A stretch of 64,000 nt of DNA from Coriobacteriia bacterium (GCA_025361335.1 JANYAK010000033.1:21246-85245), one strand, 5' to 3'. Positions 20,314 to 59,180 are shown, counted from the stretch's first letter. The notes: generated by a model not told the origin, from the sequence alone. Translations and numbers: made by a program.

Positions 20314-20903
20314 TCCGTGGCGCGGTTTCGCAGGTACACGGTCTGGGACGTCTCAAAGTCCGACCCGCGGGCGCGAAGTGCCAAGGTCATCACTATCGTG
20401 CGCGCGGCCGAGGGCGCCACTTCGGCGATCTGCGCGCCTGTGAGCTCGGTGCGGTCGTCGCGGTAGTAGCGGAACAGCGACACGCCCTTCGACACGTTCA
20501 CGCATGAATCCGAGTAGCGGAAATCCACGCGCGGAGCCACGGTCGTGTTCACGAAGGCGCTGTTGATCGACCACTCGCGATACCGGATCCATCCGGCCGA
20601 CGTAGCATCGACGATGATGCGCTGACCGGTGCCGTTCATCTGGCGATCCGTGCGGAACGTGACGGACTGCGCGGTCGTGTTCTCGAGCTGGATCGCCTGC
20701 ATGAGCTGCCTGATGATGAGCCGCATCGGCTCACCGGAATCGCGCGCGAAGATGGACTGCGACTCGCTGACCTGAGCCGCCATGATCATGGCGTTCGACG
20801 CGGAGTATATGGCGGCAAGCACGACGCCCATCAGCCCGAGCACGATCATCAACTCGGTGAGCGAGAAGCCCTCGTCACGCGCCCTGAAGCGTCCGCCACT
20901 CAT
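20310..20903 (-). CDS. Minor (pseudo)pilin with prepilin N-terminal cleavage/methylation motif
   Basis: 197 aa. 'RARDEG|FSLTELMIVLGLMGVVLAAIY' shows Gly-1, Phe+1 and Glu+5. Confidence 0.8.
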   Translation of the reverse strand: MSGGRFRARDEGFSLTELMIVLGLMGVVLAAIYSASNAMIMAAQVSESQSIFARDSGEPMRLIIRQLMQAIQLENTTAQSVTFRTDRQMNGTGQRIIVDATSAGWIRYREWSINSAFVNTTVAPRVDFRYSDSCVNVSKGVSLFRYYRDDRTELTGAQIAEVAPSAARTIVMTLALRARGSDFETSQTVYLRNRATE

Positions 20904-22555
20904 CAGAACGAGTCACTCCCGGGAAGCGCCGCGGCGGTGGCCGCGACCGTCGCCGGTACCGGCCCCACGACGTGGGATTCGATCGTGCGCGACGTGGCGT
21001 CCTTGTTGCCGCCGGGGGTGAACGTCACAACGTACTTGTAGTAGTAGGCGGCCACGACGGCCTTGTTACCCAAGGCCTCGTCCGACCGGGTGTACGTCGG
21101 GCCCGCCGCCGCGAACTGGTTCGCGGCGTCGCCGGCCGGCCACGTCACCCCATTGGTGCTGCGCCACACCTGGTAGCTGATCGCCGACGTCGAGAACGTC
21201 GGCGGGGTGATCGCCAGCGTGAGATTCGTCGTGATCTTCTCATTGCTGCCGCTGCCCGTCTTGGTGCTTTGGTAGGTGCCCTTGATCTTGGGCCGCGTCA
21301 CCAGCGGGACGACCGTCTGGTCCGTCATGCCGCCGTTGGCGGATGGCGACTGGCCGAACGAGTTCGCCGGAAGGATCCTGAACCAGTACCGCGTGAACGG
21401 GAGGGCGCTGGTCCACCGATACGAGGGCGCAGCGGGATCATAGGTGGGCGACACGAAGTGCACCGCGCCGGAGTCGGGCACGTCGTTCCAGCCGGTCGGC
21501 CCGCTACCAGCGATGGGAGTGCCGCTCACGCCGGCCCTGTCGGACCACGGATGGACCGTGTAATAGGTCGCGTAGTCGCTCACCCCCGCGCCATCCATGG
21601 ACGGACCCCACGCGATCGTGATCGTGTGGTCGCTGTTCTCGACGGGCACCGGCGGGCTGGAACATGCGGTCGGCGGCTGGTTGTCGATGGTCACCCAACG
21701 CTCGACCGTCCCGGGGCGCGACTGGTTGTCATAGGCGACGATGTAGATCTTGCGCTGGCCATCCGGGTAGTAGGGAGTGCCGTCCGCCTGAGTCGCCAAG
21801 GTGTTCCAGTAGAACGAGTACGTCCCACTCTGGACGGCGAGGTCGATCCACTCGCCTGTCGTCCCTGAGTTACTGGGAATCCCCCCGCCGGCCCCGAACA
21901 GCACGGGGACCCCGCAGAACATCTGGAGCCGCTTGATCGTCCCGCCCGTGTTAGGCGTCGACACGTGCGCCGTGACCATGATGCTGTTGCCGCGGATGAC
22001 CGCTCCCGAGGCCGGAGCCTGTCCGTCCACGAACGAGATGACCGGCACGGCCGTCCCCCCGGTGCCGCCCGTGGTCCCACCCGGGATCGCGACGATCTCG
22101 CCCGGTGCGCGGACATAGGTGGCGTAGGTCTGGACGACCGGGCGGCGGGTGAGCGCCCCCACCGAGACCACGACGACGACCTGCTTGTAGTTCTGGACCC
22201 CTGAGATCGCGGGGTCATCGACCCAAGTGACCGTGGGGGTGATCGTTATCTCGAAGCTGCCGCTACGGGCGACGGTGTTCACGGGCAGGCTGCCCTCGAT
22301 GGAGCCGCCAGCGCCTCCCGCCACCCCGACACTGGCGAATGGCATCGATCGCACGGCCTCGAGGTACGAGTGCGACGCGGCGGTCGCCACGTTCTGCTCC
22401 TTGGCTTGCACGCTCATCTGGGTCGACTTGAGGAGCAGCCCGAGTAGCGCGCTGACGGCGATGAGAAGGATGACCGCCGCGATCATGAGTTCGAGGAGGG
22501 TCATGCCCGCGTCGCCGCGGCACCAGGTCCGGATGCGACCCATCGCGCCTGTCAT
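20903..22555 (-). CDS. Large PilV-like minor pilin with C-terminal Ig/FN3-like domains
   Basis: Track ORF extends to 22648. ATG at 22555 (M32) is preceded by GGGAGGAG 6 nt upstream. Leader MTGAMGRIRTWCRGDAG|MTLLELMIAAVILLIAVSALLGLL has Glu+5. An FN3-like signature 'ITIAWGPSMDGAGVSDYATYY' is present. 550 aa. Confidence 0.7.
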   Translation of the reverse strand: MTGAMGRIRTWCRGDAGMTLLELMIAAVILLIAVSALLGLLLKSTQMSVQAKEQNVATAASHSYLEAVRSMPFASVGVAGGAGGSIEGSLPVNTVARSGSFEITITPTVTWVDDPAISGVQNYKQVVVVVSVGALTRRPVVQTYATYVRAPGEIVAIPGGTTGGTGGTAVPVISFVDGQAPASGAVIRGNSIMVTAHVSTPNTGGTIKRLQMFCGVPVLFGAGGGIPSNSGTTGEWIDLAVQSGTYSFYWNTLATQADGTPYYPDGQRKIYIVAYDNQSRPGTVERWVTIDNQPPTACSSPPVPVENSDHTITIAWGPSMDGAGVSDYATYYTVHPWSDRAGVSGTPIAGSGPTGWNDVPDSGAVHFVSPTYDPAAPSYRWTSALPFTRYWFRILPANSFGQSPSANGGMTDQTVVPLVTRPKIKGTYQSTKTGSGSNEKITTNLTLAITPPTFSTSAISYQVWRSTNGVTWPAGDAANQFAAAGPTYTRSDEALGNKAVVAAYYYKYVVTFTPGGNKDATSRTIESHVVGPVPATVAATAAALPGSDSF

Positions 22556-22682
22556 CTTTCTCCTCCCCTTCCGTCGCAGCAGCGGTCGCCCGAACGGCGC
22601 CACGACGGAATCCGGGCGCTCTTCCGTTCTCATTATCGTCCGATTCACGAGACTTCATGAGTCGCTCGCGACGGGCGACTGA

Positions 22683-31234: not shown

Positions 31235-32911
31235 TCACACCACCACGCGCATGATCTCCTCGATCGACGTCATGCCGGACTTGACCTTGGCGAACCCGTC
31301 GTCCCTCAAAGTCATCATGCCCTCGGCGACGGCATGGCGACCGAGCTCGTCCGATGAGGCGTGCTCGACCGCGAGCCGCTCGAGCGATTCCGTCATCGTC
31401 ATGACCTCGTGGATCCCCATGCGGCCCTTGTAGCCGATGCCGCCGCACTTCTTGCACCCCTTGGCGCGATACAGCTGGGGCATGTTGCCCGGGTCGTAGG
31501 GGAATCGGATCCTATCGAGCGCCTCAGGCGTGGGCGTGTAGGCCTCCTTGCACGCCGGGCACAACCGGCGTGCAAGACGCTGCGCGAGAACGCAGTTGAC
31601 GGCCGACGCCGACAGGAAGGGCTCGATGCCCATCTCGGTGAGCCGCGTGATCGCGGACGGTGCGTCGTTGGTGTGCAGGGTCGAGAGCACGAGGTGACCG
31701 GTGAGGGCGGCCTCGATCGCGATCGTGGCCGTCTCCTTGTCCCGGATCTCGCCGATCATCACGGTGTCGGGGTCTTGACGCAGGATCGAGCGCAGCGCGG
31801 CGGCGAACGTGAGACCGGCGCGTTCGTGGACCTGCACCTGGCTGAGCCCGTCGAGCCGGTATTCGACCGGGTCTTCGACGGTGATGAGGTTCGTCTTCGG
31901 GTCGTTCGTCTTGTTGATGGCCGCGTAGAGCGTCGTCGACTTGCCCGATCCGGTCGGGCCCGTGACCAGGATGCACCCGTACGGCTTGGTGAGCGCGTCC
32001 ATGAGGCGCTCGAGCGGCTGCTGCAGGAAGCCGAGGTCCTCGAGCGACATCATGATGGAGCTTCTCCGCAAGAGCCGGATGACGCACATCTCCCCCTGCA
32101 CCGTCGGCAGGACCGCCACGCGGAAGTCGACCGGAGCGCCGTCGAGCACGACGCCGAATCGCCCGTCCTGAGGGATGCGCTTCTCGGCGATATCCATTCC
32201 CGAGGCGATCTTCACCCGGCTGATGAGCTGGCGATGCAGCTTCTTCGGGCTCTTGACGACCTCCTGGCACACGCCGTCGATGCGGTACCGGACGCGCAGC
32301 TCGTTCTCCTGGGGCTCGATGTATATGTCGCCTGCGCCCTGGCGGATCGCCTCGGTGATGATGAGGTTCATGAGCTTGGCCACGGCCGACTCCTCGCCGG
32401 ACTCGACCGCCTCCTCCTCGTCGGCGCCTCCCTTGGCCATCGAACCTGTCACGTCGCCGACCATCTCTTCGACGTCGGTCTGCATCGAGGAGTACTTCTC
32501 TATGGCCTGCAGCAGGTCGCTCTCGGTAGCCACGACAGGCCGTATCTCGTAGCCGGTGACGATCCTGAGGTCGTCGATGGCGAAGATGTTGGCCGGGTCC
32601 GACATGGCCACGACGAGCTCTTCATCCTGGAACGCGATCGGCAGGACGCTGTAGCGGCGGCACAGATCGGTGGCCAGCGCCGTCGCCGCATGCGCGTCGA
32701 CCTCGTAGCCGGCGATGTCCACGAAGGACAGCCCCATCTCGTCCGCGACCGCTTGGGCGATCTTGACCTCCGTGGTAAGGCCCAGCTGGACGAGCGATTG
32801 CGACAGAGTGGCGCCCTCGGCGCCCGCCATCGCCTCTTCGAGCTGCGGCTCGGTGATCACGCCGGCCTTCACCAGTATCCTGCCGAGCCGCTTGCCGCTC
32901 GCGGCCGTCAC
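31235..32911 (-). CDS. pilB: Type IV pilus ATPase PilB paralogue 2 (GspE family)
   Basis: Track ORF is 641 aa, and its first 83 codons overlap aroE. GTG at 32911 (V84) overlaps the aroE stop (GTGA) and gives 558 aa. N-terminus 'RLGRILVKAGVITEPQLEEAM', Walker A 'GPTGSGKST', 'MIGEIRD', and tetracysteine 'CPACKEAY...CKKCGGIGYKGR'. Confidence 0.9.
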   Translation of the reverse strand: MTAASGKRLGRILVKAGVITEPQLEEAMAGAEGATLSQSLVQLGLTTEVKIAQAVADEMGLSFVDIAGYEVDAHAATALATDLCRRYSVLPIAFQDEELVVAMSDPANIFAIDDLRIVTGYEIRPVVATESDLLQAIEKYSSMQTDVEEMVGDVTGSMAKGGADEEEAVESGEESAVAKLMNLIITEAIRQGAGDIYIEPQENELRVRYRIDGVCQEVVKSPKKLHRQLISRVKIASGMDIAEKRIPQDGRFGVVLDGAPVDFRVAVLPTVQGEMCVIRLLRRSSIMMSLEDLGFLQQPLERLMDALTKPYGCILVTGPTGSGKSTTLYAAINKTNDPKTNLITVEDPVEYRLDGLSQVQVHERAGLTFAAALRSILRQDPDTVMIGEIRDKETATIAIEAALTGHLVLSTLHTNDAPSAITRLTEMGIEPFLSASAVNCVLAQRLARRLCPACKEAYTPTPEALDRIRFPYDPGNMPQLYRAKGCKKCGGIGYKGRMGIHEVMTMTESLERLAVEHASSDELGRHAVAEGMMTLRDDGFAKVKSGMTSIEEIMRVVV

Positions 32912-33864
32912 GTGACCGCCCCCCTGGGGGCGGCCGCCACGGCAGCACCGAGGGCCTCCGTGGCGGCGGCACGCATGACGTCGCGGGGTGCGACGGCCTG
33001 CGAGCCTTGGTTCCAGATCTCGATCGCGATCGCACCTTGATCGATGAGCATCCCGAGGCCGCCCAACGTGCGTGCGCCGCGTGCGGCGGCGGCGTCCATG
33101 AAAGGCGTGACCGCGGGCCGGTACACCATGTCGGCTACCACCTGTCCGGGCTGGATCCACTCCGGCGGGACCGGCAGTTCGTCGGACGGCGCCATCCCCA
33201 GTGGGGTGGCGTTGATCACCAGATCCGCGGCCTCGACCGCCTCGCGCGCCTTCGGCCCGAGTTCCACCGCCACCGCAACGGTCTGGCGCAGGCTCGACAC
33301 CACGTTGTCGATCATCACCTCGGCCGCATCCAGCCGTCGCCCCGCGATGGTCACGTGCCCCGCGCGCTCCAGCAGTAGGCCCACGAAAGCGGCTCCCGCG
33401 GCGCCGCCCGTCCCGATCACGACAGCGCGCTTCCCCTTCACGTCGAAGTCGGCGTCCTGCCTCAGGGACTCGACGAAGCCGCGACCGTCCGTGTTGTAGC
33501 CGATGAGCCTGCCGTCGTCCACGTGGACCGCGTTCACCGCTCCGGCGAGACGAGCCGCCGTGGCCACCTCATCGCATATGTTGAGCATCAGCCGCTTGTA
33601 CGGCATGGTCACATTGAAGCCGACGAACGGGAGGACCCGGATCGCGGAGGCGACGCGCATCAGATCGCCGCCCGACCGGAGCGGCATCGGGATGTAGACC
33701 CAGTTCAACCCCATGGCCGCGTAGGCGGCGTTGTGTATCGCGGGCGACAGCGTGTGATCCAGCGGCCAGCCGATCACTCCCGCGAGCTTGGTTAGCGGAT
33801 CGATGTGGGGTGGCACGTGGTGCGCCGGCCTTCCTTCGGCCCGAGCGAGCGCGCCCGCCGTCAC
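32908..33864 (-). CDS. aroE: Shikimate dehydrogenase
   Basis: 318 aa. Motifs 'VIGWPLDHTLSPAIHNAAY', 'NVTMPYK' and NADP motif 'VIGTGGAAGAA'. Confidence 0.9.
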   Translation of the reverse strand: MTAGALARAEGRPAHHVPPHIDPLTKLAGVIGWPLDHTLSPAIHNAAYAAMGLNWVYIPMPLRSGGDLMRVASAIRVLPFVGFNVTMPYKRLMLNICDEVATAARLAGAVNAVHVDDGRLIGYNTDGRGFVESLRQDADFDVKGKRAVVIGTGGAAGAAFVGLLLERAGHVTIAGRRLDAAEVMIDNVVSSLRQTVAVAVELGPKAREAVEAADLVINATPLGMAPSDELPVPPEWIQPGQVVADMVYRPAVTPFMDAAAARGARTLGGLGMLIDQGAIAIEIWNQGSQAVAPRDVMRAAATEALGAAVAAAPRGAVT

Positions 33865-44929: not shown

Positions 44930-46243
44930 TCAGCCGGCACTCCCGCGGCCCGGGTCGCGGCCCTCGCGTTCTCGCTCGCGCTGCGCCTCCCATCCGCGCG
45001 TACCCGCGCGGTACAGCGCGGCCGATTCGAGCCCGTCGGGAAGGTAGCGCTGCTCGACCCATCCCTCCGGCCGGTCGTGCGGATAGAGGTAGCGACCATA
45101 CGATTCCGACCCGGGCCGATGCCTGTCGCGAAGGTGGTCGGGCACCCTTCGGGCCGGCCCCGTCCGCACCTCCTCCAGTGCGGAGTCGATAGCCAGGTAC
45201 GAGGCGTTGCTCTTCGGGGCGAGCGCCATGTAGATCGCGGCCTGCGCCAGGTTGATGCGGCATTCGGGCCAGCCGATCGACTCGGCGGCCTTGAAGGCCG
45301 CGGCAGCAACAAGGAGAGCCTGGGGATCGGCGTTGCCGATGTCCTCGGACGCGAGGATGAGTATCCTGCGTGCGATGAACCGGGGATCCTCGCCGCCGTG
45401 GACCATCCGGGCAAGCCAATAGACGGTGGCGTCCGGATCGCTCCCGCGCATGGACTTGATGAATGCCGATGCGACGTCGTAGTGGGCGTCGCCATCCTTG
45501 TCGTACGACAGGATGCGCGCCCCTCCGCCCCGCGCAATGGCGGCAAGGTCGATGACCGCGCCCTGCTCAGCCGCACCGGCAGCCTCCTCGAGCATGTTGA
45601 GCGCCACTCGCGCGTCCCCGCCCGCGGACACGACGATCGCGTCTTGCGCCTCGGGAGAAAGAGACCACCGCCCACCGAGGCCGCGCTCTTCGTCGACCAG
45701 TGCCCGCCGGACGATCGTGCCGACGTCCTGGTCGGAAAGCGGTCGCAGCTCCACGATCCGCGACCTGCTTATGAGCGGCGCGTTCACCTCGAAGAAGGGG
45801 TTCTCCGTCGTGGCGCCGATGAGCACGACCAGGCGGTCCTCCACCGCGTGCAGAAGGGCATCTTGTTGGGACTTGCTGAACCGGTGGATCTCGTCCACGA
45901 ACAAGGTCGTCCGGCTGCCCGAGAACGCAAGGCGGTCCTTCGCCTCGTCGATGGCCCGGCGCAGGTCCGCGACCCCCGAGTTGACCGCGGAGACCTCGCA
46001 GAAGGCCGCCGCGGTGGCGTTCGAGATCACGCGGGCGAGGCTCGTCTTGCCGCACCCGGCGGGGCCGTAGAGGATGAGAGAGGACAACTGGTCGTTCTCG
46101 ATCGCTCGGCGCAGGGCGGTCCCGTGCCCGACTGCGTGGTCCTGCCCGACGAACTCGGCGAGGGCGCGCGGGCGCATCCGCGCGGCCAAGGGGGCCTGCG
46201 CAAGGAGCGCCTCGTCGGCGGCATCTGAGAAGAGATCGGCCAT
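44930..46243 (-). CDS. rarA: Replication-associated recombination protein A (AAA+)
   Basis: 437 aa. Motifs 'PLAARMRPRALAEFVGQDH', Walker A 'LYGPAGCGKTSLA', 'LFVDEIHRF' and MgsA C-terminal 'YWLARMV.GGEDPRFIARR'. Confidence 0.93.
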   Translation of the reverse strand: MADLFSDAADEALLAQAPLAARMRPRALAEFVGQDHAVGHGTALRRAIENDQLSSLILYGPAGCGKTSLARVISNATAAAFCEVSAVNSGVADLRRAIDEAKDRLAFSGSRTTLFVDEIHRFSKSQQDALLHAVEDRLVVLIGATTENPFFEVNAPLISRSRIVELRPLSDQDVGTIVRRALVDEERGLGGRWSLSPEAQDAIVVSAGGDARVALNMLEEAAGAAEQGAVIDLAAIARGGGARILSYDKDGDAHYDVASAFIKSMRGSDPDATVYWLARMVHGGEDPRFIARRILILASEDIGNADPQALLVAAAAFKAAESIGWPECRINLAQAAIYMALAPKSNASYLAIDSALEEVRTGPARRVPDHLRDRHRPGSESYGRYLYPHDRPEGWVEQRYLPDGLESAALYRAGTRGWEAQREREREGRDPGRGSAG

Positions 46244-46260: not shown

Positions 46261-46824
46261 CTAGGAAGTGGCGCGCAGCACCTCACGCTCGAGAAGGGTC
46301 CTGTCCGTGAAGCCCAGGAAACGGCCTATGACGCGCCCGTAGCGGTCGACGAAGATCATGTACGGCGCGTTCTTCACGTTGATGGAGCCCGCCAGCGACA
46401 TCGCCTTCTGAAGGTCGGTCGGCTTCGAGGTCTCGACGGAGACCAGCCCCGCGGCGACGTCGTATGAGAGCAGGTCGATGAGTCCGCGGTACTTCTCCAT
46501 GACCGCGTCTATCTCGTTCCACTGATCCGAATTGACCACCTGCGTCGAATCCATGTAGACGATCAGCATGGGCCGCTTGGCGCGCAACTTGACGAGGATC
46601 TCGGCGGGGACCGACTCGACCGAGGTCGGGAACTGCTCGTTGAGAACGATCTGCGAGGGCGACAGAACATCGGAGCTGTTCGATGAAGCGGCCACCGCGG
46701 CCCCGGGCACGGGCACCGGGGCGGTGGTGACAACGGCGCCGTCCGAGGAAGCCCCGCCGCCTCCGCACGCCGTGAGAGCCACCATCACCGCGACGAGCAT
46801 GGTTGCTGCGACTAGTCTGCGCAT
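46261..46824 (-). CDS. Putative lipoprotein, thioredoxin-fold-like but without CxxC
   Basis: This is the last 187 codons of the track ORF (ATG 46824). Signal peptide plus lipobox 'MRRLVAATMLVAVMVALTAC|GGG'. No further Cys in the mature protein. Confidence 0.6.
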   Translation of the reverse strand: MRRLVAATMLVAVMVALTACGGGGASSDGAVVTTAPVPVPGAAVAASSNSSDVLSPSQIVLNEQFPTSVESVPAEILVKLRAKRPMLIVYMDSTQVVNSDQWNEIDAVMEKYRGLIDLLSYDVAAGLVSVETSKPTDLQKAMSLAGSINVKNAPYMIFVDRYGRVIGRFLGFTDRTLLEREVLRATS

Positions 46825-47040
46825 GCCTACGCCTTCCAGCGTGAGTCGACCCACTCGGACCCCGCCCTGTCGCGCCTCCGGATGGTGAACCTGCCTCAGC
46901 AGGTGGGTGTCCGCACCCCGGCCTCGCGCTTCCCCGATCGAGGGGGATCCCACTGAGCCGGGAGGATATAGGACTCCCGATAACGAAGTGTTGGTTCGAC
47001 CGTTGGTACCGGAGTCAACGACAAGGCAGAGCCTGGGCAC

Positions 47041-50351: not shown

Positions 50352-50977
50352 CGCGCCTCGTCGCCGATCGTGGTGTCGGCGCCGTGGCCGGGATGCACCC
50401 GCGTCCGAGGGGGCAGGCCTGCCAGCGCGTCGCTTATCGAGCGGGCCAGCGCGCGCGCGTCTCCCCCCGCGAGGTCGGTCCGTCCGACCGAGCGGTAGAA
50501 CAGAGTATCGCCGCTGAACAGGTGGGGGTCGAGCCCCTGCTCCGCGCGTGCCGGGACGAAGAGGCAGATCCCCCCGGGGGTATGCCCGGGAGTGTGGAGG
50601 ACCTCCAGCCGAAGGCTCCCCGCCTCCACGACGTCGCCGCCGGAGAGCGACCGCGTCACGGGAGGAGCGACGCGGTCGAAGCCGAACTGGCCGCCGCCGT
50701 TGGCCCAGGAGTCCGTGACCGCCGCCGCGTCCATGTGATGCGCCAACAGCGGCGCGCCCGTGGCCTCGATGAGCGCGGCCGCGGCGCCGAGGTGATCGAA
50801 GTGGCTGTGGGTCAGCACGACGACGGTCACATCCCGCCCGCCTATCGAATCGAGCAGGACATCCGCCTCGTCCGCCGGATCGATCACGACGAGAGGTCCT
50901 CCGGCGCCGTCCGACACGAGCCAGCAGTTCGTGTCCAGGGTGCCGAGCACGAGGCGCTCGACCTCCACACCGCTCAC
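50315..50977 (-). CDS. MBL-fold metallo-hydrolase (glyoxalase II-like)
   Basis: 220 aa. Motifs 'VVVLTHSHFDHLG', 'HTPGHTPG' and 'GDTLF'. ATGA overlap with rel. Confidence 0.85.
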   Translation of the reverse strand: MSGVEVERLVLGTLDTNCWLVSDGAGGPLVVIDPADEADVLLDSIGGRDVTVVVLTHSHFDHLGAAAALIEATGAPLLAHHMDAAAVTDSWANGGGQFGFDRVAPPVTRSLSGGDVVEAGSLRLEVLHTPGHTPGGICLFVPARAEQGLDPHLFSGDTLFYRSVGRTDLAGGDARALARSISDALAGLPPRTRVHPGHGADTTIGDEARLNPFWPREGRA

Positions 50978-53187
50978 GAGCGCCTCCGGACCAGCGGCCC
51001 CGACGGCTTCATGCGGTCGGCGCCGAACACGCCCTCTATCCCGCGCACGCGGGATAGCACCGGTGCGAGCTGTTCCATGTTGCCCAGCTCGAACAGGAAC
51101 CGCATGTTCGCGATGCCCTGCTTGTCGGTCGCTATGTTGGCCGACAGCACGTTGACCCCGGCTTCGGCCAGAACCGCGGTGACCTCGTTGAGCAGCCGCG
51201 TCCGGTCTCGGGCCTCGATGAAGATCTCGACCTGGTAGGTGGTCTCAGTGGCCGTGTCCCACTCGACCTCGATGATCCGCTCGGGTTCGCGCAGCAGGTC
51301 CCCCGCGTTGGGACAGTCGGCCCGGTGGACGGACACGCCACGGCCGCGCGTGACGAAGCCCACCAGTGCGTCGCCGGGAACGGGGTTGCAGCACCGGGCG
51401 ATGCGGACGAGCAAGTCGTCGATGCCCTTGACCCGCACGCCGGAGGGAGATCGGCGCTTCGACCTCGGCGGTGTCATCGGAGTGGTCGGGAGCAGCTCCG
51501 GGGCCTCGTGCACGGGCTCGAGCGTCACGCCGGGCTGGATGCCGGCGAGCAGCTTGATGAGCTTGCCGACGACCAGCTTGGCCGATACCTTGCCCGCACC
51601 GATCGCCGCCAGCAGGTCGTCCCCCTCGGCGTAGTTGAGTTCCTTGGCGACGTGCGCCAGCGCCTTGGCGCCCGAATGGGACCCGATCGACAGACCCTGC
51701 TTGCGCGCGATCTTGCTCAACTCGTCCTTGCCGCGCTGCAGGTCGTCGGTGCGCGACGCCTTGCTGAAGTAGGCCCGTATCTTGGAGCGCGCTCCCGACG
51801 TCTTGACGATGTTGAGCCAGTCCCTCGAAGGGCCGGAGCTCTTGTTGGTCAGGACATCGACCCGGTCGCCCATCTGCAGCTCGTATCCGAGCGGGACGAT
51901 CGAACCGTTCACCTTGGCGCCCACCGTGTGGTGCCCGACCTCGGTGTGGATCGCATAGGAGAAGTCGATGGGGGTCGAGCCCTTGCGCAGGGAGACCACG
52001 TCCCCCTTGGGCGTGAAGACGAACACCTCGTCCTCGAACAGGTCGATCTTGAGGGCCTCCATGAACTCGCGCGGGTCCTTGAGCTCGGTCTGCCACTCCA
52101 GCATCTGGCGCAGCCACGCCAGGCGCTCCTCGAAACTCTCGTCGCCCTTGCCGCCCTCCTTGTACCGCCAGTGAGCGGCGATGCCGTACTCCGCGGTGCG
52201 GTGCATCTCGTCGGTGCGGATCTGCAGCTCGAGCGGGCGGCCGGCCGGGCCGATGACCGTCGTGTGCAGGGATTGGTACATGTTGAACTTCGGCATGGCC
52301 ACATAGTCCTTGAACCGGCCGGGGACCGGCTTCCAGACCGAGTGGATCGTGCCGAGGGCGCCATAGACGTCCTTCACCGAGCCGACGATCACGCGCAGGG
52401 CGATGAGGTCGTAGATCTCGTTGAAGTCCTTACCTTTCTGCGACATCTTCTGGTAGATGCTGTAGAAGTGCTTCGGCCGCCCGGAGATCTCGGCGTGGAT
52501 GCCCACCTGCGCCAGCTCGCGGGTCAGATCGCCGATCACCTGCTCCAGATACTCCTCGCGCGCGTCGCGACTCTCGGCGACCATGCGCTGGGTCCGTTCG
52601 TACTGCTGGGGTTCGAGAACCTTGAACGACAGATCCTCCAGCTCCCACTTCACGCTGGAGATGCCGAACCGGTGCGCGAGCGGCGCGTAGATCTCCATGG
52701 TCTCGCGCGCCTTCTCGAGCTGCCGGTCGCGCTCGAGGAACTCGATCGTCCGCATGTTGTGCAGACGATCCGCCAGCTTGATGAGGATGACCCGGATATC
52801 CTTGGCCATCGCGATGAGCATCTTGCGCATGTTCTGGGACTGCTGCTCGGCGAGCGTTCCCACCTTGATGCGGCCCAGCTTGGTGACGGCGTCCACGAGC
52901 GCGGCGACCTCGTCGCCGAACCTGTCGCGGATCTCGCTCAGGTCGACCCGGCTGTCCTCGACGACGTCGTGCAGCAGCGCCGCCGTGAGAGTCGCCGTGT
53001 CGAGATGGAGCTCCGCCAGGATCCCGCAGACCGCCAGCGGGTGCGATACGAACGACTCGCCGCTCTTGCGCATCTGGCCCTCGTGGGCGCGCGCGGCGAA
53101 CGCGGCGGCGTCCTCGAGCGCGCCCAGGTCAGCGCCCGGGTTGTACGATCGAATGCGCTCTTCTATCTGCTCCAGTGTGATCGTCAC
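50974..53187 (-). CDS. rel: Bifunctional (p)ppGpp synthetase/hydrolase Rel
   Basis: Track ORF is 867 aa. GTG at 53187 (V131) gives 737 aa starting VTITLEQIEERIRSYNPGADL. HD hydrolase 'HPLAVCGILAEL...LLHDVVED', synthetase 'RPKHFYSIYQKM' and 'YQSLHTTV', plus TGS and ACT-like C-terminal domains. Confidence 0.93.
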   Translation of the reverse strand: MTITLEQIEERIRSYNPGADLGALEDAAAFAARAHEGQMRKSGESFVSHPLAVCGILAELHLDTATLTAALLHDVVEDSRVDLSEIRDRFGDEVAALVDAVTKLGRIKVGTLAEQQSQNMRKMLIAMAKDIRVILIKLADRLHNMRTIEFLERDRQLEKARETMEIYAPLAHRFGISSVKWELEDLSFKVLEPQQYERTQRMVAESRDAREEYLEQVIGDLTRELAQVGIHAEISGRPKHFYSIYQKMSQKGKDFNEIYDLIALRVIVGSVKDVYGALGTIHSVWKPVPGRFKDYVAMPKFNMYQSLHTTVIGPAGRPLELQIRTDEMHRTAEYGIAAHWRYKEGGKGDESFEERLAWLRQMLEWQTELKDPREFMEALKIDLFEDEVFVFTPKGDVVSLRKGSTPIDFSYAIHTEVGHHTVGAKVNGSIVPLGYELQMGDRVDVLTNKSSGPSRDWLNIVKTSGARSKIRAYFSKASRTDDLQRGKDELSKIARKQGLSIGSHSGAKALAHVAKELNYAEGDDLLAAIGAGKVSAKLVVGKLIKLLAGIQPGVTLEPVHEAPELLPTTPMTPPRSKRRSPSGVRVKGIDDLLVRIARCCNPVPGDALVGFVTRGRGVSVHRADCPNAGDLLREPERIIEVEWDTATETTYQVEIFIEARDRTRLLNEVTAVLAEAGVNVLSANIATDKQGIANMRFLFELGNMEQLAPVLSRVRGIEGVFGADRMKPSGPLVRRRS

Positions 53188-53251
53188 GCGCTGGGATCCG
53201 CCTTCGTCAACTAAGCACCGGGCCCGCTGCCCGCTCGGGCGCGACCCGGCG

Positions 53252-56200
53252 TCACGTACTCGGCAGGATAGGACGGTTGAGGGTGGCGAGCAAATCCTCA
53301 CAAGCGGCCGCGAGCACCCATTCGCGGAACTCCGCGAACTCCGCGGCCTCCTGCAGCCCCTCGGCGTAGCGGACCGACGTCTTAAGGTCGGTCTTGGCGG
53401 CCGACGCCGGTTCGAGGCGCAGCCGCCGGTAGGCGCCGAGGCCTTCCCCCGTGACGAAGCCGAGTTCGCGGAACACGCCGATGCCGGTCGACACCCCGCG
53501 GTCCGACAGGCGTGAGCGCTGCCGGCGCGTGCGGACGTATTCGGCCAGATCGGCATTGGTCGCTTCGACCCATCCATCCTCCGCGGCGGCGCCTTTGTCC
53601 CTCAGGGCGGCGTAGAGCGCGCGCAGGTCGTCCGCATCGGGCGCGGAGGCCTCGATGATGAGCTCGTTGAGCCGCGCGTCCTTCTCCCCGAACAACAGGT
53701 GGATGGTCGCGGCTTCCCCGTCGCGCCCGCCGCGACCGCACATCTGGTTGAACTCCACGCGGTCGAACGGCAGGTGGAACAGCACGACGTGGCGCACGTC
53801 GGGGATGTTGACCCCCTCTCCGAACGCGCTCGTCGCCACGACAAGCGAGAGGTCCCCCTCGCGAAAGGCGCGCTCCACCGCGTGACGGGCCGCCCGAGCC
53901 ATCCCGCCGTTGTAGAAGGCGGCCCGATGCAGCAGCGCGGGGACCGACTCGCGGATCTTCTGCGCGAGCCGCACGGACTGCTCCCGGCTGTTGACGTACA
54001 CGATCGTCTTGTCCCCGCACGCCGCCAGCGACACGAGCTGGATGACCTTGTCGGTGGAGGAGCGCCGGTCCGCGACGCGGAGGTTGTCGCGCACCGTCGG
54101 GTCGAGCACCATCTCGTCGATGCCGAGGGTGGCGCGGATGACCGCGGCCTCTTCGTCCCCGGCCGTCGCGGTGACAGCGAGGACCATAGGGCGACCGAGC
54201 GTCTCGAGCGCCTTTCCCATCCGCGCGTACGCCGGACGGTGCCCCGTGCGAGACTGCCCGACGTGATGCGCCTCGTCCACCACCACGAAGCCCACCCGAC
54301 CCGATGCGGCGAATCGCTCGGCGTGCCTCTCGAGGAACTCGGGCGTCGTCATGAGCGCGTCGACGCGGCCGTCCGCGAGTGCCGCGAACGTCTCGTCGCG
54401 CCCGCCCTGCGGTGTCTCGCCCGTGATCAGACCGGCCGACAGGCCGAGCCCGGCGAAGGTCTCGGTGAGGTGAAACGCCTGATCCGCGACCAGCGCCCGA
54501 AGCGGATAGACGAAGATGCTCGCGCGCCCCGCCTTGAGGGCGAGACGCGCCGCGTGCATCTGGAAGATCAGGGACTTGCCTCTCCCCGTGGCCATGACGG
54601 TCAGGCACGACCTGCCCGCCGCCAGGTGCGCCAGGGAGCGCACCTGCGCGTCATGCAGCGGGCGATCGCCGATGAAGCGTCGGGAGAGTTCCGCGTCGAG
54701 GTCGCTGTCCGGGAGCCGCGACAGCCTCTCGCGCGCCGCGGCGCGATCCTCGGGGGCGTCCACGTCGTCGTTCTCGCTCCGCCGTTGCACCTCCACGTTC
54801 ACGCCGAGGCTCTCGCCAGCCTTCCCCCCGGTCACTTCCGACACGACGACGTCATAGGCGGCGCCGGCGTCGATGGCGGGTGCGATCGCGGCGGCGAGCC
54901 GCCTGTTGAAGAAGCCCACGTGGTCACCGAGGGCGTCGAACAGAGCGCAGGCGTTCGGGTCGTGCGGGTTGTCGGCCTGACGCTTAAGCCGCAGCGGCGC
55001 GCCGGGCGCAAGCCGTCCGACCACCGTCTGCCGCTCATCGAAGGTGACTCCCGCCAGCTTGGTGTGGAACGATCCCGCGTCCGCGATGTTGCCGTAGCCG
55101 TCCCGTGCCAGGATCCGGTCGGCGTCGGCGAACAGCTCGTCGACGAGCGCAGCCGCGGCTTCCTCCGGCGCCGCCGACCCGATCCTGAGGTCGCGCACCA
55201 TGAGCTGCAGCCGCTCGCGGCCCTTCCACGTCTCGACGTCGACCTGATAGGCGATGTCGACGGCCGCGGGAGTGTCGGTCACGCGGTCGATGTCCGGGCA
55301 GCGGAAGGCGATGGCGGCGACCGAGGCGACCCCGTCGTAGGCTTCGAAGCGCAGGTGGTCCGCGTCGGCACCCACGCGCTTCCGGCCGTTCATGAACACG
55401 CCCCTGCTGGCCAGGAGCGGCTTGGGATTGCTGTGGCCGAACGGCTCGAGCGCCGCCAGCTCCGCGGCCAGTTCGCGGGACACGTCGGCGAGGCGCACCT
55501 CCGCGTCGAGAGCGAGACTGGGGATGAAGGCCTCCTCCGACAGGGTCGCGAGGGACGTCGCGAGACGGGAGCGGAACGCCTCGACGTCGGCCGCGGGCAG
55601 CGTGACGCCCACCGCGGCGGCGTGCCCGCCGAACCGCGTCAACAGAGCGGCACACTCCGACACGGCCGCATGCAGGTCGACACCGGCGGCGCTTCGCCCG
55701 CTGCCGGTCGCAACGCCGTCCTCGATCGTGAACAGGACGACGGGTACGCCGTACAGGGAGGCGAGCCGCCCCGCCGCGATGCCCCGCACCCCTGGGTGCC
55801 ACCCTTCTCCCGCCAGGACAAGCACTCTGTCCCCGGGGGTATAGGCCTTCTCCGCGGACTCTCGTGCGAGGCCGACGAGATCGGCCTCCACGGCCTGCCG
55901 CGCGCGGTTGTACTCGTCGAGGCGCCGCGCAAGCGTCGCGGCACGGGCGGGATCCTCCTCGAGCAGGAGATCGAGCGCGTCGCCGGGATCGGCGATCCGA
56001 CCGGCGGCGTTGATCCGGGGCGAGAGCCCGAAGGCGGTCCTCTCCGCGCTGATGGCGCGGACGTCGATCCCCGCGACCGATGCCAAAGCCGCGATGCCCG
56101 GTCGCGGGTCGCGACGCATCCGCTCCAGCCCGTGCGCCACGAGAGCGCGGTTCTCGTCGAGCAAGGGGACGACGTCGGCGATCGTCCCGATGGCCGCGAT

Positions 56201-56881
56201 GTCCGTGTAGTCGAGCCACAGGTCGGGTTGGCCCGTGCGCTCGCCCACCGCCTGCAAAAGCTTCAAGGCGACGCCCGCTCCCGCGAGACCCGAGAACGGC
56301 GCGCCCGGGAGCTTGGGGTCGGCCACGGGCACGCCGGTCGGCACTGAGTCACCCGGCTCGTGGTGGTCCGTCACGACCACGCGCACTCCTCTCGCCAACA
56401 AGGCCTCGACCTCGACCGCGGACGAGATGCCGCAGTCGACCGTCACGACGAGGGCCGGGCTCTCGGCGAGCAGGCGCTCGATCGACGATGGGCCCAACCC
56501 GTAGCCGTCCTTGGCGCGGTGGGGCAAGACGGGCGAGACGTCGGCGCCGAGCCGGCGCAGGCCCGCCGTGAGCAGAGCTGTGGCCGTGACGCCGTCCGCG
56601 TCGAAGTCGCCGAACACCGCGATCCGCGAGCCCCGGCGCACGGCGTCGGCTACCTCGTCGGCGCAGGCGTCCATTCCGGGGATCGACGACGGCGAGCGCC
56701 AGTCCCGCGCGATGTCGGGTTCGAGGAAGCGCCGCGCCACGACGGCATCGGTCACACCGCGCGTGACGAGGAGGCGCGCCACGACGGTCGAAACCCCGGC
56801 GAGCTGGGCCAGCGCTCGAACCCCGGCCTCGTCGGCATCGGGGAAGGTCCAGCGTCTCTCGGGCGTCTTCGCATCAGGCAC
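53252..56881 (-). CDS. recJ: RecJ exonuclease - HIRAN - RecQ-like SF2 helicase fusion protein
   Basis: 1209-aa uninterrupted ORF. Residues 1-565 are RecJ (DHH 'AVFGDFDADGVTA', 'VVTVDCG', 'VVVTDHH'; DHHA1 'FGGHAAAVG'). Residues 604-698 are HIRAN ('LAGVTFDERQ...LKRQADNPHDPNACALFD...VGFFNRRLAAAIAP'). Residues 740-1075 are a helicase core (I 'MATGRGKS', II 'VVVDEAHH', III 'VTATA', V 'ATSAFGEGVNIPDV', VI 'QMCGRGGRDG'). Confidence 0.85.
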   Translation of the reverse strand: MPDAKTPERRWTFPDADEAGVRALAQLAGVSTVVARLLVTRGVTDAVVARRFLEPDIARDWRSPSSIPGMDACADEVADAVRRGSRIAVFGDFDADGVTATALLTAGLRRLGADVSPVLPHRAKDGYGLGPSSIERLLAESPALVVTVDCGISSAVEVEALLARGVRVVVTDHHEPGDSVPTGVPVADPKLPGAPFSGLAGAGVALKLLQAVGERTGQPDLWLDYTDIAAIGTIADVVPLLDENRALVAHGLERMRRDPRPGIAALASVAGIDVRAISAERTAFGLSPRINAAGRIADPGDALDLLLEEDPARAATLARRLDEYNRARQAVEADLVGLARESAEKAYTPGDRVLVLAGEGWHPGVRGIAAGRLASLYGVPVVLFTIEDGVATGSGRSAAGVDLHAAVSECAALLTRFGGHAAAVGVTLPAADVEAFRSRLATSLATLSEEAFIPSLALDAEVRLADVSRELAAELAALEPFGHSNPKPLLASRGVFMNGRKRVGADADHLRFEAYDGVASVAAIAFRCPDIDRVTDTPAAVDIAYQVDVETWKGRERLQLMVRDLRIGSAAPEEAAAALVDELFADADRILARDGYGNIADAGSFHTKLAGVTFDERQTVVGRLAPGAPLRLKRQADNPHDPNACALFDALGDHVGFFNRRLAAAIAPAIDAGAAYDVVVSEVTGGKAGESLGVNVEVQRRSENDDVDAPEDRAAARERLSRLPDSDLDAELSRRFIGDRPLHDAQVRSLAHLAAGRSCLTVMATGRGKSLIFQMHAARLALKAGRASIFVYPLRALVADQAFHLTETFAGLGLSAGLITGETPQGGRDETFAALADGRVDALMTTPEFLERHAERFAASGRVGFVVVDEAHHVGQSRTGHRPAYARMGKALETLGRPMVLAVTATAGDEEAAVIRATLGIDEMVLDPTVRDNLRVADRRSSTDKVIQLVSLAACGDKTIVYVNSREQSVRLAQKIRESVPALLHRAAFYNGGMARAARHAVERAFREGDLSLVVATSAFGEGVNIPDVRHVVLFHLPFDRVEFNQMCGRGGRDGEAATIHLLFGEKDARLNELIIEASAPDADDLRALYAALRDKGAAAEDGWVEATNADLAEYVRTRRQRSRLSDRGVSTGIGVFRELGFVTGEGLGAYRRLRLEPASAAKTDLKTSVRYAEGLQEAAEFAEFREWVLAAACEDLLATLNRPILPST
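54788..55072 (-). other. HIRAN domain region inside the RecJ fusion ORF
   Basis: FHTKLAGVTFDERQTVVGRLAPGAPLRLKRQADNPHDPNACALFDALGDHVGFFNRRLAAAIAPAIDAGAAYDVVVSEVTGG. It carries the 'NPxDPNA' core and the 'GyvpreLA..lapll' pattern of HIRAN. Confidence 0.65.
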
Positions 56882-56965
56882 GGGCCAATCCTAACAGACG
56901 GGCCCGACACCCAGTGGGGTGCCGGGCCCGGATCGGGCGCGGATATGGCACGGACGACCCGGCCT

Positions 56966-57892
56966 TTAGGAGGCCTTCGCGTAGCGCGCCTTGAGCGCCT
57001 TGTAGCGAGGCTCCGTCTCTTTCCACATCGCGTAGAGCGGGCTCGCGATGGCGACCGACGAATACGCGCCGGAGATCAGACCGATCAGCAGGGCGAACGC
57101 GAAGTCCTTCAGCGTGTCGCCGCCGAAGCTGAGCAGCACGACGACCGGGATGATCTGGGACAGGCCCGTGTTGATCCATCGCGCCAGCACCTGGTTGATC
57201 GAGTCGTTCGCCATCTTCATGAACGAGGTCTTCTGCAGGCTCTGTGTGTTCTCCCGGATGCGGTGGAACACGACGATCGTGTCGTACAGGGAGTACCCGA
57301 GGATGGACAGCAGGGCGGCCACCGTGTTCGGCGTCACCTCTCGGCCGACCAAGGCGTAGATGCCCAGCGTGATGACCGCATCGTGCACGAGCGCGATCAC
57401 CGCGGTTATCGACATCTTGTACTCGAAGCGAACGGAGATGTAGATCAGGATCGCCGCGATCGACACGATCAGGGCGAGCATCGCCGCGTTCGTGATCGAC
57501 GCGCCGTAGCTGGGCGCGATCGTGGACGTCTGAGCGTCCTTGAGCGAGATGCCCAGATCCTTCGCGACGTTGTCGAACACCGCCGCGGCCTTGTTGGTGT
57601 CGGACACGCCGCTGCGGATGAGCCACCCGTCCGGGCGCCCGGACGTCAGGGTCGACTGAACGATGGCGTCGCTCATGCCCGCCTTGCGCAGAGCAGCGTC
57701 CACCTTCTCCGTGGTCACGCCCGCGGTCTGCGGAAGCTTGATGGACGTGCCGCCGCGGAACTCGATGCCGAACGTGAGGCCGCGCACGAGCAGCGCGCCG
57801 ATGGCGATGGTCAAAACGATCCCGGAGAGCATGAACAGCCACTTGCGGTTGCCCATGAAGTCGATGTAGACCTTACGCATGTCTGGCACCAC
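56966..57892 (-). CDS. secF: Protein translocase subunit SecF
   Basis: 308 aa (likely start ATG 57880, MRKVYIDFMGNRKW). Motifs 'GIEFRGGT' and 'TLGIYALVGREVT'. 6 TM segments. Confidence 0.93.
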   Translation of the reverse strand: MVPDMRKVYIDFMGNRKWLFMLSGIVLTIAIGALLVRGLTFGIEFRGGTSIKLPQTAGVTTEKVDAALRKAGMSDAIVQSTLTSGRPDGWLIRSGVSDTNKAAAVFDNVAKDLGISLKDAQTSTIAPSYGASITNAAMLALIVSIAAILIYISVRFEYKMSITAVIALVHDAVITLGIYALVGREVTPNTVAALLSILGYSLYDTIVVFHRIRENTQSLQKTSFMKMANDSINQVLARWINTGLSQIIPVVVLLSFGGDTLKDFAFALLIGLISGAYSSVAIASPLYAMWKETEPRYKALKARYAKAS

Positions 57893-59180
57893 CCTTCACG
57901 CCCCAGACAGCTGGCGCCTTGGCGATCACCGACTCGGCGAGAGTGATCACCATCGGCCGCGTGAACAGGAAGCCGACCGTGAGGTCGGTGACAAGACCGA
58001 GGATCAACGTGAGCGCGAACCCGCGCACGGGGCCGATGGCCAGCGCGTAGAGGAACACGGCGGATACGAATGTGACGACGTCGGCGTCGACGCTCGTGAG
58101 CAGGGCGTGCTTGGTGCCGGATTTGGCGGCGCTGCGCGGGGTCTTGCCCATCGCGACCTCTTCGCGGAACCGCTCGAAGATCAGGATCGACGTATCAGCT
58201 GCCATGCCGATGGAGATGACGATGCCGGCGATGCCAGGCAGCGACAGCGCGAACGCGCCCGCCCTGGAGAGACCGCCGAGGACGCCCAGGTAGAGCACCG
58301 CGAAGATCGCCAATGAGAACCACGACAGCACGCCGAGGCCCCGGTAGTAGACGCCCAGATACAGGCCGACGATGATCAGGCCCGCGATAGCGGCCAGGAG
58401 ACCCTGATTCAGGGACGCCTGCCCGAGGGTCGGCCCCACCTGTTGGGTGTCGGAGAACTTCAGAGTCACCGGCAACGCGCCCGTTTGCAGGACCGTCGCC
58501 AGCTGCTTGGCCTGATCGGCGGTGAACTTGCCCGTGATCTGCGAGCTGCCATCCAGGATGGGCTCGATGATGCTCGGCGCCGACTGTATGCGCCCGTCCA
58601 GAACGATCGCCACCTGCTTGCCGACCAGACGGGTGGTGATCTTGCCCCACTCGTCGCGGCCCTTGGCGTTGAACGTCATGCTGACCGCGTAGGCGCCCGG
58701 GCTCTTGGTATCCGCCTCCGCCGACGCCGCCGTGACCACCTCGCCGGTGAGAAGCACCGTATACGACCCCTTCTTGAGCAGCAGTCCGTCCTTGATCGTC
58801 TCGGAGGTCGCGATACTGGCGACGTCCACGAACTCCAGCTGCCCCGTGCTGCCCAGGATCTTCAGGGCCGAGGCCGCGTCACGAACGCCGGGGAGCTGCA
58901 CGAGGATGGAGCGCGCGCCCTCCCGCTGGACGGTCGCCTCGGAAACGCCGAGTCCGTTCACGCGGTTCTGCACGATGAGAAGGGCACGATCCATGGACGA
59001 GGCGTCCACGTCGGCCTTCTCCGCCGTCAGGATGACCGAGAGGCCACCCTGCAAGTCGAGTCCCTGCTTGATCTGCTTCGCTGGCGGCCAGAACAGCCAC
59101 ACCGCGCCCAGAACGAGGACCAGGACCGCGACCAGGGAGACGTAGTTCCACTGCCTTGATTCCATACCGTCGCCTTCCAC
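57873..59180 (-). CDS. secD: Protein translocase subunit SecD
   Basis: 435 aa (alternative start ATG 59165). Motifs 'KQGLDLQGGLSVIL', 'VQREGARSILVQLPG' and 'GPTLGQASL'. C-terminal 6-TM domain. Confidence 0.93.
   Translation of the reverse strand: MEGDGMESRQWNYVSLVAVLVLVLGAVWLFWPPAKQIKQGLDLQGGLSVILTAEKADVDASSMDRALLIVQNRVNGLGVSEATVQREGARSILVQLPGVRDAASALKILGSTGQLEFVDVASIATSETIKDGLLLKKGSYTVLLTGEVVTAASAEADTKSPGAYAVSMTFNAKGRDEWGKITTRLVGKQVAIVLDGRIQSAPSIIEPILDGSSQITGKFTADQAKQLATVLQTGALPVTLKFSDTQQVGPTLGQASLNQGLLAAIAGLIIVGLYLGVYYRGLGVLSWFSLAIFAVLYLGVLGGLSRAGAFALSLPGIAGIVISIGMAADTSILIFERFREEVAMGKTPRSAAKSGTKHALLTSVDADVVTFVSAVFLYALAIGPVRGFALTLILGLVTDLTVGFLFTRPMVITLAESVIAKAPAVWGVKGGARHA

Follow-up and report, generated by a model that had tools for sequence, protein, structure and literature searches.

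A 64,000-nucleotide stretch of DNA from a Coriobacteriia bacterium (GCA_025361335.1 JANYAK010000033.1:21246-85245), hereafter called the window, includes a gene in which a RecJ exonuclease, a HIRAN domain and a RecQ-like helicase are joined in one polypeptide. This gene is the organism's housekeeping recJ orthologue with a C-terminal extension that consists of HIRAN, a RecQ-like superfamily 2 (SF2) helicase and a predicted winged helix. We propose, with a probability of about 0.6, that the fused protein would function as a single-polypeptide helicase-nuclease in the presynaptic step of RecFOR-type recombination. While the partnership between RecQ and RecJ is itself expected, what is new is the finding of this resection pair as a single chain with an added HIRAN domain, spread in gut bacteria and accompanied by variants that have lost one of the domains.

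The fused gene is a single uninterrupted open reading frame (ORF) that runs from nucleotide 56881 to nucleotide 53252 on the minus strand (53252..56881) and includes 1209 codons, with a GTG start at 56881-56879 and a TGA stop. The opposite reading was discarded: the plus-strand translation of 53252-56881 is riddled with stops, which places the gene on the minus strand. The G+C content at third codon positions (GC3) is 0.82-0.96 in all 50-codon segments of the ORF, including those at both domain junctions, and there is no sign of a change of frame. Neither promoter-like nor terminator-like sites were seen inside the ORF. The product is 100% identical to a protein found in public data, P0001. 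The first-pass annotation of this DNA, made from the sequence alone, had described an uninterrupted 1209-codon ORF and had not given its strand; a single minus-strand ORF with steady GC3 throughout bears this description out.

The N-terminal part of the protein is a predicted RecJ 5'-3' single-stranded DNA (ssDNA) exonuclease module that encompasses residues 31-565 (55187..56791, minus strand). It matches the NCBIfam recJ equivalog TIGR00644 with 456.4 bits, above the cut-off of 396.9, and these residues correspond to positions 2-546 of the 546-position model. The Pfam domains DHH, DHHA1 and RecJ_OB were located at residues 86-233, 351-441 and 458-564, respectively; DHH motifs I-IV and the DHHA1 GGH motif are intact and the OB-fold domain is present. 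Conservation was taken from an alignment of 93 homologues at 59-71% identity, and the residues described as invariant throughout this text are those invariant in that alignment. They include D92, D94, D149, D172-H173-H174, D236 and H420 of the RecJ module. The best Foldseek match in PDB was the D. radiodurans RecJ structure 5f55 (E 1e-43, 568 columns, 37% identity, template modelling (TM) score for the target 0.70, root-mean-square deviation (rmsd) 2.6 Å), and the RecJ structures 8y30 and 2zxo were further fold matches.

A conserved helical linker of 37 residues (566-602; 55076..55186, minus strand) connects RecJ_OB to the HIRAN domain. It has invariant A, F, A, Y and F positions and is predicted to form two short helices, with a predicted local distance difference test (pLDDT) score of 58-85. 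The HIRAN domain follows at residues 603-~680 (54842..55075, minus strand), and the structured segment extends to residue ~700. It is predicted to be rich in strands (pLDDT ~74-88). Pfam PF08797 matches residues 603-676 with 37.1 bits when the full protein is searched and 41.2 bits when the segment is isolated, the gathering score being 24.7. In human HLTF, HIRAN is a 3'-end binder. When the fused protein is aligned to the HLTF HIRAN structures 4xzf and 2mzn, the sequence 637-DNPHDPNA-644 falls on NNPYDKNA of HLTF. The pocket motif N-P-[H/Y]-D-x-N-A is conserved, with N638, D641 and A644 invariant. In the structures known as Hishiki 2015 and Kile 2015, residue D94 of HLTF reportedly contacts the 3'-OH; the residue aligned with it is the invariant D641, which we take to be its equivalent in the fused protein. 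The position of HLTF Y93 is occupied by H640. The cavity of the HLTF domain, flanked by Y72 and Y93, takes a single-stranded dinucleotide (PMC4666394).

The RecQ-like SF2 helicase core spans residues 738-1082 (53636..54670, minus strand) and includes the Pfam domains DEAD (PF00270, 745-909) and Helicase_C (PF00271, 945-1055). Its motifs are 0 (Q746), I (GRGKS, 766-770), Ia, II (DEAHH, 869-873), RPxY (882-885), III, V and VI (QMCGRGGRDG, 1046-1055). Q746, GRGKS, DEAHH, QxxGRxGRD and the R-P-x-Y sequence after motif II, which is typical of RecQ, are all invariant. The best helicase matches in NCBIfam are RecQ models, TIGR01389 with 178.1 bits and TIGR00614 with 159.1 bits. Among PDB sequences the first match was C. 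sakazakii RecQ 4tmu (8.8e-34) and the second was RECQL4 5lst, with E. coli RecQ 1oyw at 7e-32. In the Foldseek comparison the RecQ-family helicases rank after RecJ (4tmu, E 5.6e-21), and WRN helicase structures are found among the sequence and fold matches of the core. The alignment to 4tmu covers residues 738-1082, and the sequence match to RecQ ends at ~1082; the full-length Foldseek alignment to 1oyw reaches up to 534 columns, at a high rmsd. Pfam gave no match to RQC in the fused protein and none to HRDC at E <= 0.1. HRDC is also missing from several accepted RecQ-like proteins. Because the RecQ models are matched below their cut-offs, the match ends at ~1082, the zinc module is missing and neither RQC nor HRDC was matched, the helicase is, judged by its sequence, RecQ-like and not a member of the RecQ family.

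The last 127 residues (1083-1209; 53255..53635, minus strand) form a family-specific C-terminal domain, predicted to be a winged helix flanked by helices. It has no Pfam match, and a profile of the family had no match among PDB sequences. Modeled alone with AlphaFold it reached a pLDDT of 88.5 and a predicted TM score (pTM) of 0.78, and the model has two helices, a winged-helix core of the order H-E-H-H-E-E and two more helices. Its weak fold matches, none better than E 5e-3, are all to DNA-binding winged-helix proteins of the SmtB/ArsR, MarR, Fur and TubR types and not to RecQ. The domain is conserved in the fused protein and in its stand-alone relatives, with many invariant residues. On the basis of these models it is probably a family-specific winged helix that is placed like the RQC domain of RecQ, to which no homology can be demonstrated. 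The tail at the very C-terminus, F-[N/D]-R-P-I-L-P (residues 1202-1207; 53255-53275, minus strand), is invariant in the fused homologues and reads ...NRPIYP in the stand-alone HIRAN-helicases. The pLDDT of this tail is 76-90 in the full-length model and 50-71 in the isolated domain, a difference that suggests that the tail may dock on another domain. The full-length AlphaFold model, which covers 1200 residues (10-1209) and was made with the 93-sequence alignment, has a mean pLDDT of 87.1. Its pTM of 0.73 suggests that the five-domain chain may have a defined overall arrangement.

Most of what the first-pass annotation had read in the protein was recovered. It had claimed a complete RecJ at residues ~1-565, in agreement with the TIGR00644 score above cut-off and the finding of DHH, DHHA1 and RecJ_OB; a HIRAN domain, now matched by PF08797 above its gathering score; and a C-terminal domain of ~130 amino acids of unknown type, which the negative Pfam and PDB sequence searches leave as described. 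The motifs that it quoted were all found at their positions. A domain annotation with profiles, proposed there, matched DHH, DHHA1, HIRAN, DEAD and Helicase_C, with no match to RQC or HRDC. The term RecQ-like helicase holds in that the SF2 core is closest to RecQ, and it does not extend to membership in the RecQ family, given the scores below cut-off and the zinc module, RQC and HRDC that were not found.

The fusion is widely distributed. At least 120 further protein clusters at 90% identity have the same set of Pfam domains, with 59-71% identity and lengths of 1170-1240 amino acids; most of them are named 'single-stranded-DNA-specific exonuclease RecJ' and come from Coriobacteriia or from metagenome-assembled genomes (MAGs) of Actinobacteria. 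The DHH and GGH residues of the nuclease, Walker A GRGKS, DEAHH, motif VI and the HIRAN N-P-x-D-x-N-A motif are invariant, and the alignment indicates that purifying selection acts on every part of the fused protein. With each GTDB species represented by a single genome, a scan gave 395 relatives, and the reading frame was checked in the best 80 loci. RecJ and the helicase are in one uninterrupted ORF in more than 50 of these, which represent different species and include the isolates Olsenella porci, O. intestinalis and Collinsella aerofaciens as well as Thermincola ferriacetica and a Peptococcaceae MAG. Among representatives at 50% identity of ~15 billion proteins the fused form was seen down to ~33% identity. 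The fusion is therefore real. It is not a rarity: a large clade, Coriobacteriia together with several Firmicutes lineages, has it as its standard recJ. A search for the same architecture had been proposed in the first-pass annotation as a check of its novelty: the architecture proved to be already widely deposited as 'RecJ', and in the library of full texts that was searched, no paper on a fusion of RecJ to a helicase or to HIRAN turned up. Other deposited names of relatives are 'DEAD/DEAH box helicase' and 'helicase-related protein'. Four 'cleanbin' MAGs, titled Agathobacter rectalis, Bacteroidaceae, Acidaminococcaceae and Alloprevotella (L033, L049, L054 and L057), carry a Coriobacteriia-like fused recJ with 46-52% identity; these are probably mis-binned contigs and not true occurrences in the named taxa.

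The location of the gene agrees with its identification as recJ. On the same strand the gene order is tgt, secD, secF, the fused gene, rel, a gene of the metallo-beta-lactamase fold (MBL), hisS, aspS, 6S RNA and mgsA/rarA. This arrangement matches the recJ neighborhood of B. subtilis and other Firmicutes, and on this ground the fused gene is a positional orthologue of recJ. The upstream neighbor secF (56966..57892, minus strand; PF02355 at 7e-57), which marks the conserved recJ slot, is followed by a spacer of 84 nucleotides ahead of the start of the fused gene; secD, next to secF, lies at 57873-59180. An ORF at 56874-57842 that overlaps the start of the fused gene was considered as secF and ruled out, since it has no Pfam match and the real secF is the one just described. 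Downstream, the rel/spoT-type (p)ppGpp synthetase-hydrolase gene (50974..53190, minus strand; HD_4, RelA_SpoT, TGS and ACT domains) has its true start near 53186, ~65 nucleotides past the stop of the fused gene. The 'canonical recJ slot' (secF-recJ-rel) of the first-pass annotation is thus confirmed on both sides. The order secD/secF-gene-rel was seen again in the distant relatives L086, L087 and L088, where further members of the neighborhood are also conserved: tgt-yajC in L086, MBL in L087 and L088, and hisS in L087.

When the relatives were sorted by domain, four apparent forms were obtained, the commonest being RecJ-HIRAN-helicase followed by the C-terminal domain. A second form of ~1050-1150 amino acids, found in Collinsella and some other gut Coriobacteriales, lacks HIRAN, and a third, of 620-690 amino acids, has HIRAN, helicase and C-terminal domain without RecJ. 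The fourth, helicase and C-terminal domain alone, was rejected, all three cases checked being fragments or assembly artefacts: P0182 sits on a 1.9-kb contig, and P0424 and P0425 (loci L087 and L088) are not split genes, as frameshifts break up secD, secF and recJ alike on their long-read contigs. Similarly, P0273 (L086), an apparent RecJ-less protein, is a fused gene whose linker is interrupted by a stretch of N between duplicated flanks (L086 5843-5962). The RecJ-less form is genuine in two groups. The first is a group of Eremiobacterota (Ca. Elarobacter, Baltobacteraceae, Ca. Aquilonibacter), in which the gene takes the recJ slot, immediately behind secD-secF, and keeps no remnant of RecJ; four genes of this kind (L001 6001-8043, L002 6001-7983, L083 6001-7992 and L084 6001-8007) overlap the end of secF by ~30 nucleotides. 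The second consists of scattered Firmicutes such as Anoxybacter fermentans (A0A3Q9HP86). A search for a contig with the Anoxybacter protein P0281 gave no match. The proteins of the two groups, deposited as 'DNA helicase' in A. fermentans and 'DEAD/DEAH box helicase' in Eremiobacterota, share with the fused protein the whole module of HIRAN, helicase and C-terminal domain (38-45% identity) and the ...NRPI[LY]P tail, and differ from it in having no RecJ domain, even though the Eremiobacterota gene still occupies the recJ slot. Another member of the second group, a stand-alone HIRAN-helicase (L085 6001-7920), lies amid many small unannotated ORFs, an IS21-type transposase pair and PAPS-reductase-like genes, a context that is mobile-element- or phage-like, unlike the housekeeping slot of the other relatives.

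A rough neighbor-joining distance tree of the helicase and C-terminal domain region places the HIRAN-less lineages within the HIRAN-bearing gut Coriobacteriales, a nesting that implies, at the level of sequence, a secondary loss of HIRAN. In the same tree the RecJ-less forms are found beside the fused Firmicutes.

RecQ-type helicases travel 3' to 5' and RecJ digests ssDNA 5' to 3'. Starting from a DNA end or the 5' boundary of a gap, the two activities progress in one common direction, each on its own strand, a geometry that is used by RecBCD and AddAB. In the fused protein, the helicase would load on the 3'-ended or template strand and run 3' to 5' into the duplex using ATP, while the displaced 5'-ended strand would pass to the RecJ active site and be degraded 5' to 3'; the product would be a 3' single-stranded tail or a widened gap for RecFOR and RecA. 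HIRAN, located between the two enzymes, would probably capture a free 3'-OH end or a junction and so recruit, target or orient the machine, the candidate ends being that of a break, the primer terminus of a gap and the nascent leading strand at a stalled fork. The winged-helix domain would probably take the part of the RQC winged helix of RecQ and grip the duplex in front of the motor. Recognition of a 3' end, unwinding and 5'-3' degradation in one chain would be geometrically coherent and would agree with what is known of RecQ and RecJ and of the HLTF HIRAN domain. Cooperation of RecQ, a 3'-5' helicase, and RecJ, a 5'-3' exonuclease, in end resection and at blocked forks is established (PMC3378886; Morimatsu & Kowalczykowski 2014 and Courcelle & Hanawalt 1999, as cited in PMC4663267).

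The architecture with its conservation, the intact catalytic motifs, the genomic slot and confident models of the single domains were observed directly; the helicase polarity, the link between unwinding and degradation, the substrate and what HIRAN and the winged helix do are inferred. Several observations weigh against the proposed function in resection. The polarity and the nuclease-helicase coupling are assumed by transfer from RecQ and RecJ. The RecQ-family cut-offs are missed (159.1 versus 219.8 bits for TIGR00614, 178.1 versus 640.2 bits for TIGR01389) and the tetracysteine zinc module is missing, C1194 being the sole Cys C-terminal to motif VI. The aromatic-rich loop is conserved in part: RPxY is kept, and the residues at the positions of W154 and F158 of E. 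coli RecQ are S and H. Furthermore, HIRAN is dispensable in some lineages, as the Collinsella clade retains RecJ-helicase after losing HIRAN, which makes HIRAN an accessory domain; and RecJ is dispensable in others, as the Eremiobacterota keep only HIRAN-helicase. These two forms together indicate that the modules can work apart.

The proposed function may be extended, tentatively and with less expectation of being right, to a reading in which the fused protein would be the main DNA-end and gap resection machine of Coriobacteriia and related anaerobes. It would then be a one-chain functional analogue of RecBCD and AddAB, in which HIRAN would hold the 3'-OH end, the motor would pump and RecJ would remove the 5' strand, leaving for RecA a 3' tail that is looped and protected. 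If this extension is true, a function would be defined for a bacterial HIRAN domain for the first time, the protein would represent a resection enzyme of a new mechanistic class, and the presence of a HIRAN-helicase in the recJ slot of Eremiobacterota would mean that the helicase module, and not RecJ, is the indispensable part.

A combination of motor and nuclease in one particle or chain for the processing of DNA ends is likewise found in RecBCD, AddAB, AdnAB, WRN and DNA2. Of these, WRN (a RecQ helicase with a 3'-5' exonuclease) and DNA2 (a nuclease with a superfamily 1 helicase) are single-chain eukaryotic proteins, and WRN is a precedent for the fusion of a RecQ-type core to an exonuclease. 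The nucleases of these systems are of the PD-(D/E)XK type or DnaQ-like, whereas that of the fused protein is of the DHH/RecJ type with 5'-3' polarity; the domains are unrelated, and the likeness is one of function, not of membership. The fused protein also differs from the RecBCD-type machines in having a single SF2 motor, and we know of no Chi-recognition element for it. The separate RecQ (or RecS) and RecJ proteins of the RecFOR pathway in E. coli and B. subtilis are another close parallel: the same two activities are predicted, RecJ is matched at the equivalog level, the helicase is closest to RecQ and the gene occupies the same slot as recJ of Firmicutes. In contrast to that pair, the two enzymes are here covalently joined with HIRAN between them, and the helicase has a family-specific predicted winged helix and lacks the zinc module and matches to RQC and HRDC. 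A helicase of the B. subtilis RecS type is unsupported, no protein of that name being found among the best 120 relatives of a helicase-only member. The closest characterized non-classical bacterial RecQ-like helicase is Mycobacterium smegmatis RqlH, a 3'-5' helicase of different architecture (PMC3378886). It resembles the fused protein in its actinobacterial RecQ-like core, non-canonical C-terminus and lack of HRDC, and differs in that it keeps a tetracysteine zinc domain, has a ComF/phosphoribosyltransferase-like C-domain and carries neither RecJ nor HIRAN (PMC3378886).

The main alternative, conceivable although doubtful, is that the fused protein acts first as a remodeller of stalled forks rather than in end or gap resection. 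HIRAN would bind the 3' end of the nascent leading strand, as in HLTF/Rad5, the motor would regress or unwind the fork and RecJ would trim the nascent lagging strand. The HIRAN domain with its conserved pocket motif fits this idea, as does the fork-associated rarA/mgsA gene in the same conserved neighborhood. The HIRAN domain of HLTF is required for fork remodelling (PMC4666394), and RecQ and RecJ of E. coli process nascent DNA at UV-blocked forks, according to Courcelle & Hanawalt 1999 as cited in PMC4663267. HLTF/Rad5 proteins, which consist of HIRAN, a SNF2 translocase and RING, share with the fused protein a HIRAN domain N-terminal to an SF2-superfamily ATPase and the conserved N-P-[Y/H]-D-x-N-A motif. 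However, the HLTF motor is a SNF2 translocase of double-stranded DNA and not a RecQ-like helicase, and the fused protein is bacterial, has no RING and has a nuclease attached. Moreover, the Collinsella lineage lost HIRAN without losing the RecJ-helicase fusion, and the core function should therefore be independent of HIRAN. A role at forks overlaps with resection, and the two are compatible rather than exclusive.

The aromatic-rich loop of RecQ couples ATP hydrolysis to unwinding. The degenerate loop in the fused protein, together with the missing zinc module and the lack of an RQC match, and thus of a recognizable strand-separation hairpin, would be in line with a helicase part that does not unwind duplex DNA. 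It would instead serve RecJ as an ssDNA translocase or regulator by removing SSB or secondary structure in its path, or it would gate the nuclease allosterically, and the enzyme would be an ATP-stimulated ssDNA exonuclease. In the related case of UvrD2, PMC3378886 reports that deletion of the zinc module abolishes unwinding and not ATPase activity. We consider this alternative unlikely, since the ATPase and DNA-binding motifs are all invariant and a conserved predicted winged-helix domain follows the core. In addition, helicases of the RecQ4/Hrq1 type also lack a canonical RQC and yet unwind, and RECQL4 5lst is the second-best PDB match.

A much less probable alternative is that the protein is a nuclease-helicase for defence against phages or foreign DNA, related to DpdF or PsyrT, and not a repair enzyme. 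PADLOC matched residues 734-1110 to DpdF with 203 bits and to PsyrT with 177 bits, and one stand-alone relative (L085) is found in the mobile-element-like context described above. The PADLOC matches, however, span only the generic RecQ-like core, and the curated DpdF model of NCBIfam, NF041063, is matched with 136 bits against a cut-off of 550. The housekeeping recJ slot is conserved across phyla with the neighbors secDF, rel, hisS and aspS, none of which is a defence gene, and there is no dpd or toxin-antitoxin neighborhood. A phage origin was discarded as well, no phage record holding >=80% of the module of HIRAN, helicase and C-terminal domain. Finally, the joining of separate recJ and helicase genes by a missed stop or frameshift in the assembly can be dismissed, because the same continuous ORF is found in >50 independent genomes, isolates included, and in at least 120 protein clusters, the linker is conserved and the in-frame GC3 is constant. 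The opposite error is seen in some database entries, where an N-gap (L086) or long-read frameshifts (L087, L088) interrupt a fused gene.

The pair RecQ and RecJ is the textbook case of cooperation between a separate helicase and a separate nuclease, and their widespread natural fusion is strong independent evidence for the partnership. The fusion also offers a simple one-protein system for study of the link between unwinding and 5'-strand degradation, with the natural HIRAN-less and RecJ-less variants as built-in comparisons. Its occurrence in cultivable human-gut bacteria (Olsenella, Collinsella) makes experiments feasible, and bacterial HIRAN domains gain a concrete and testable context. The names 'RecJ' and 'DEAD/DEAH box helicase' each hide half of the protein, and the C-terminal domain lies outside any Pfam family.

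The rest of the window includes other genes for recombination or replication rescue, a RecN-like SMC_N protein (524-2155, minus strand) and mgsA/rarA (44930-46243, minus strand), and nearly all its confident genes are carried by the minus strand. Among the large ORFs of the 64-kb window there is no separate recQ, addAB or recBCD. Directly downstream of aspS, nucleotides 46855-47035 (minus strand) match 6S RNA (RF00013) with 46.5 bits, the gathering score being 46.4. This match overlaps an ORF of 259 amino acids (46261-47040) that has no Pfam match, and at least the 5' part of this ORF is therefore probably not coding. Two further ORFs, 18763-20313 (516 amino acids) and 20903-22648 (581 amino acids), both on the minus strand, have no Pfam match at 1e-8 and show a coding-like GC3 of 0.85-0.89; they are located upstream of a type II/IV secretion ATPase region (T2SSE, 31235-33160).

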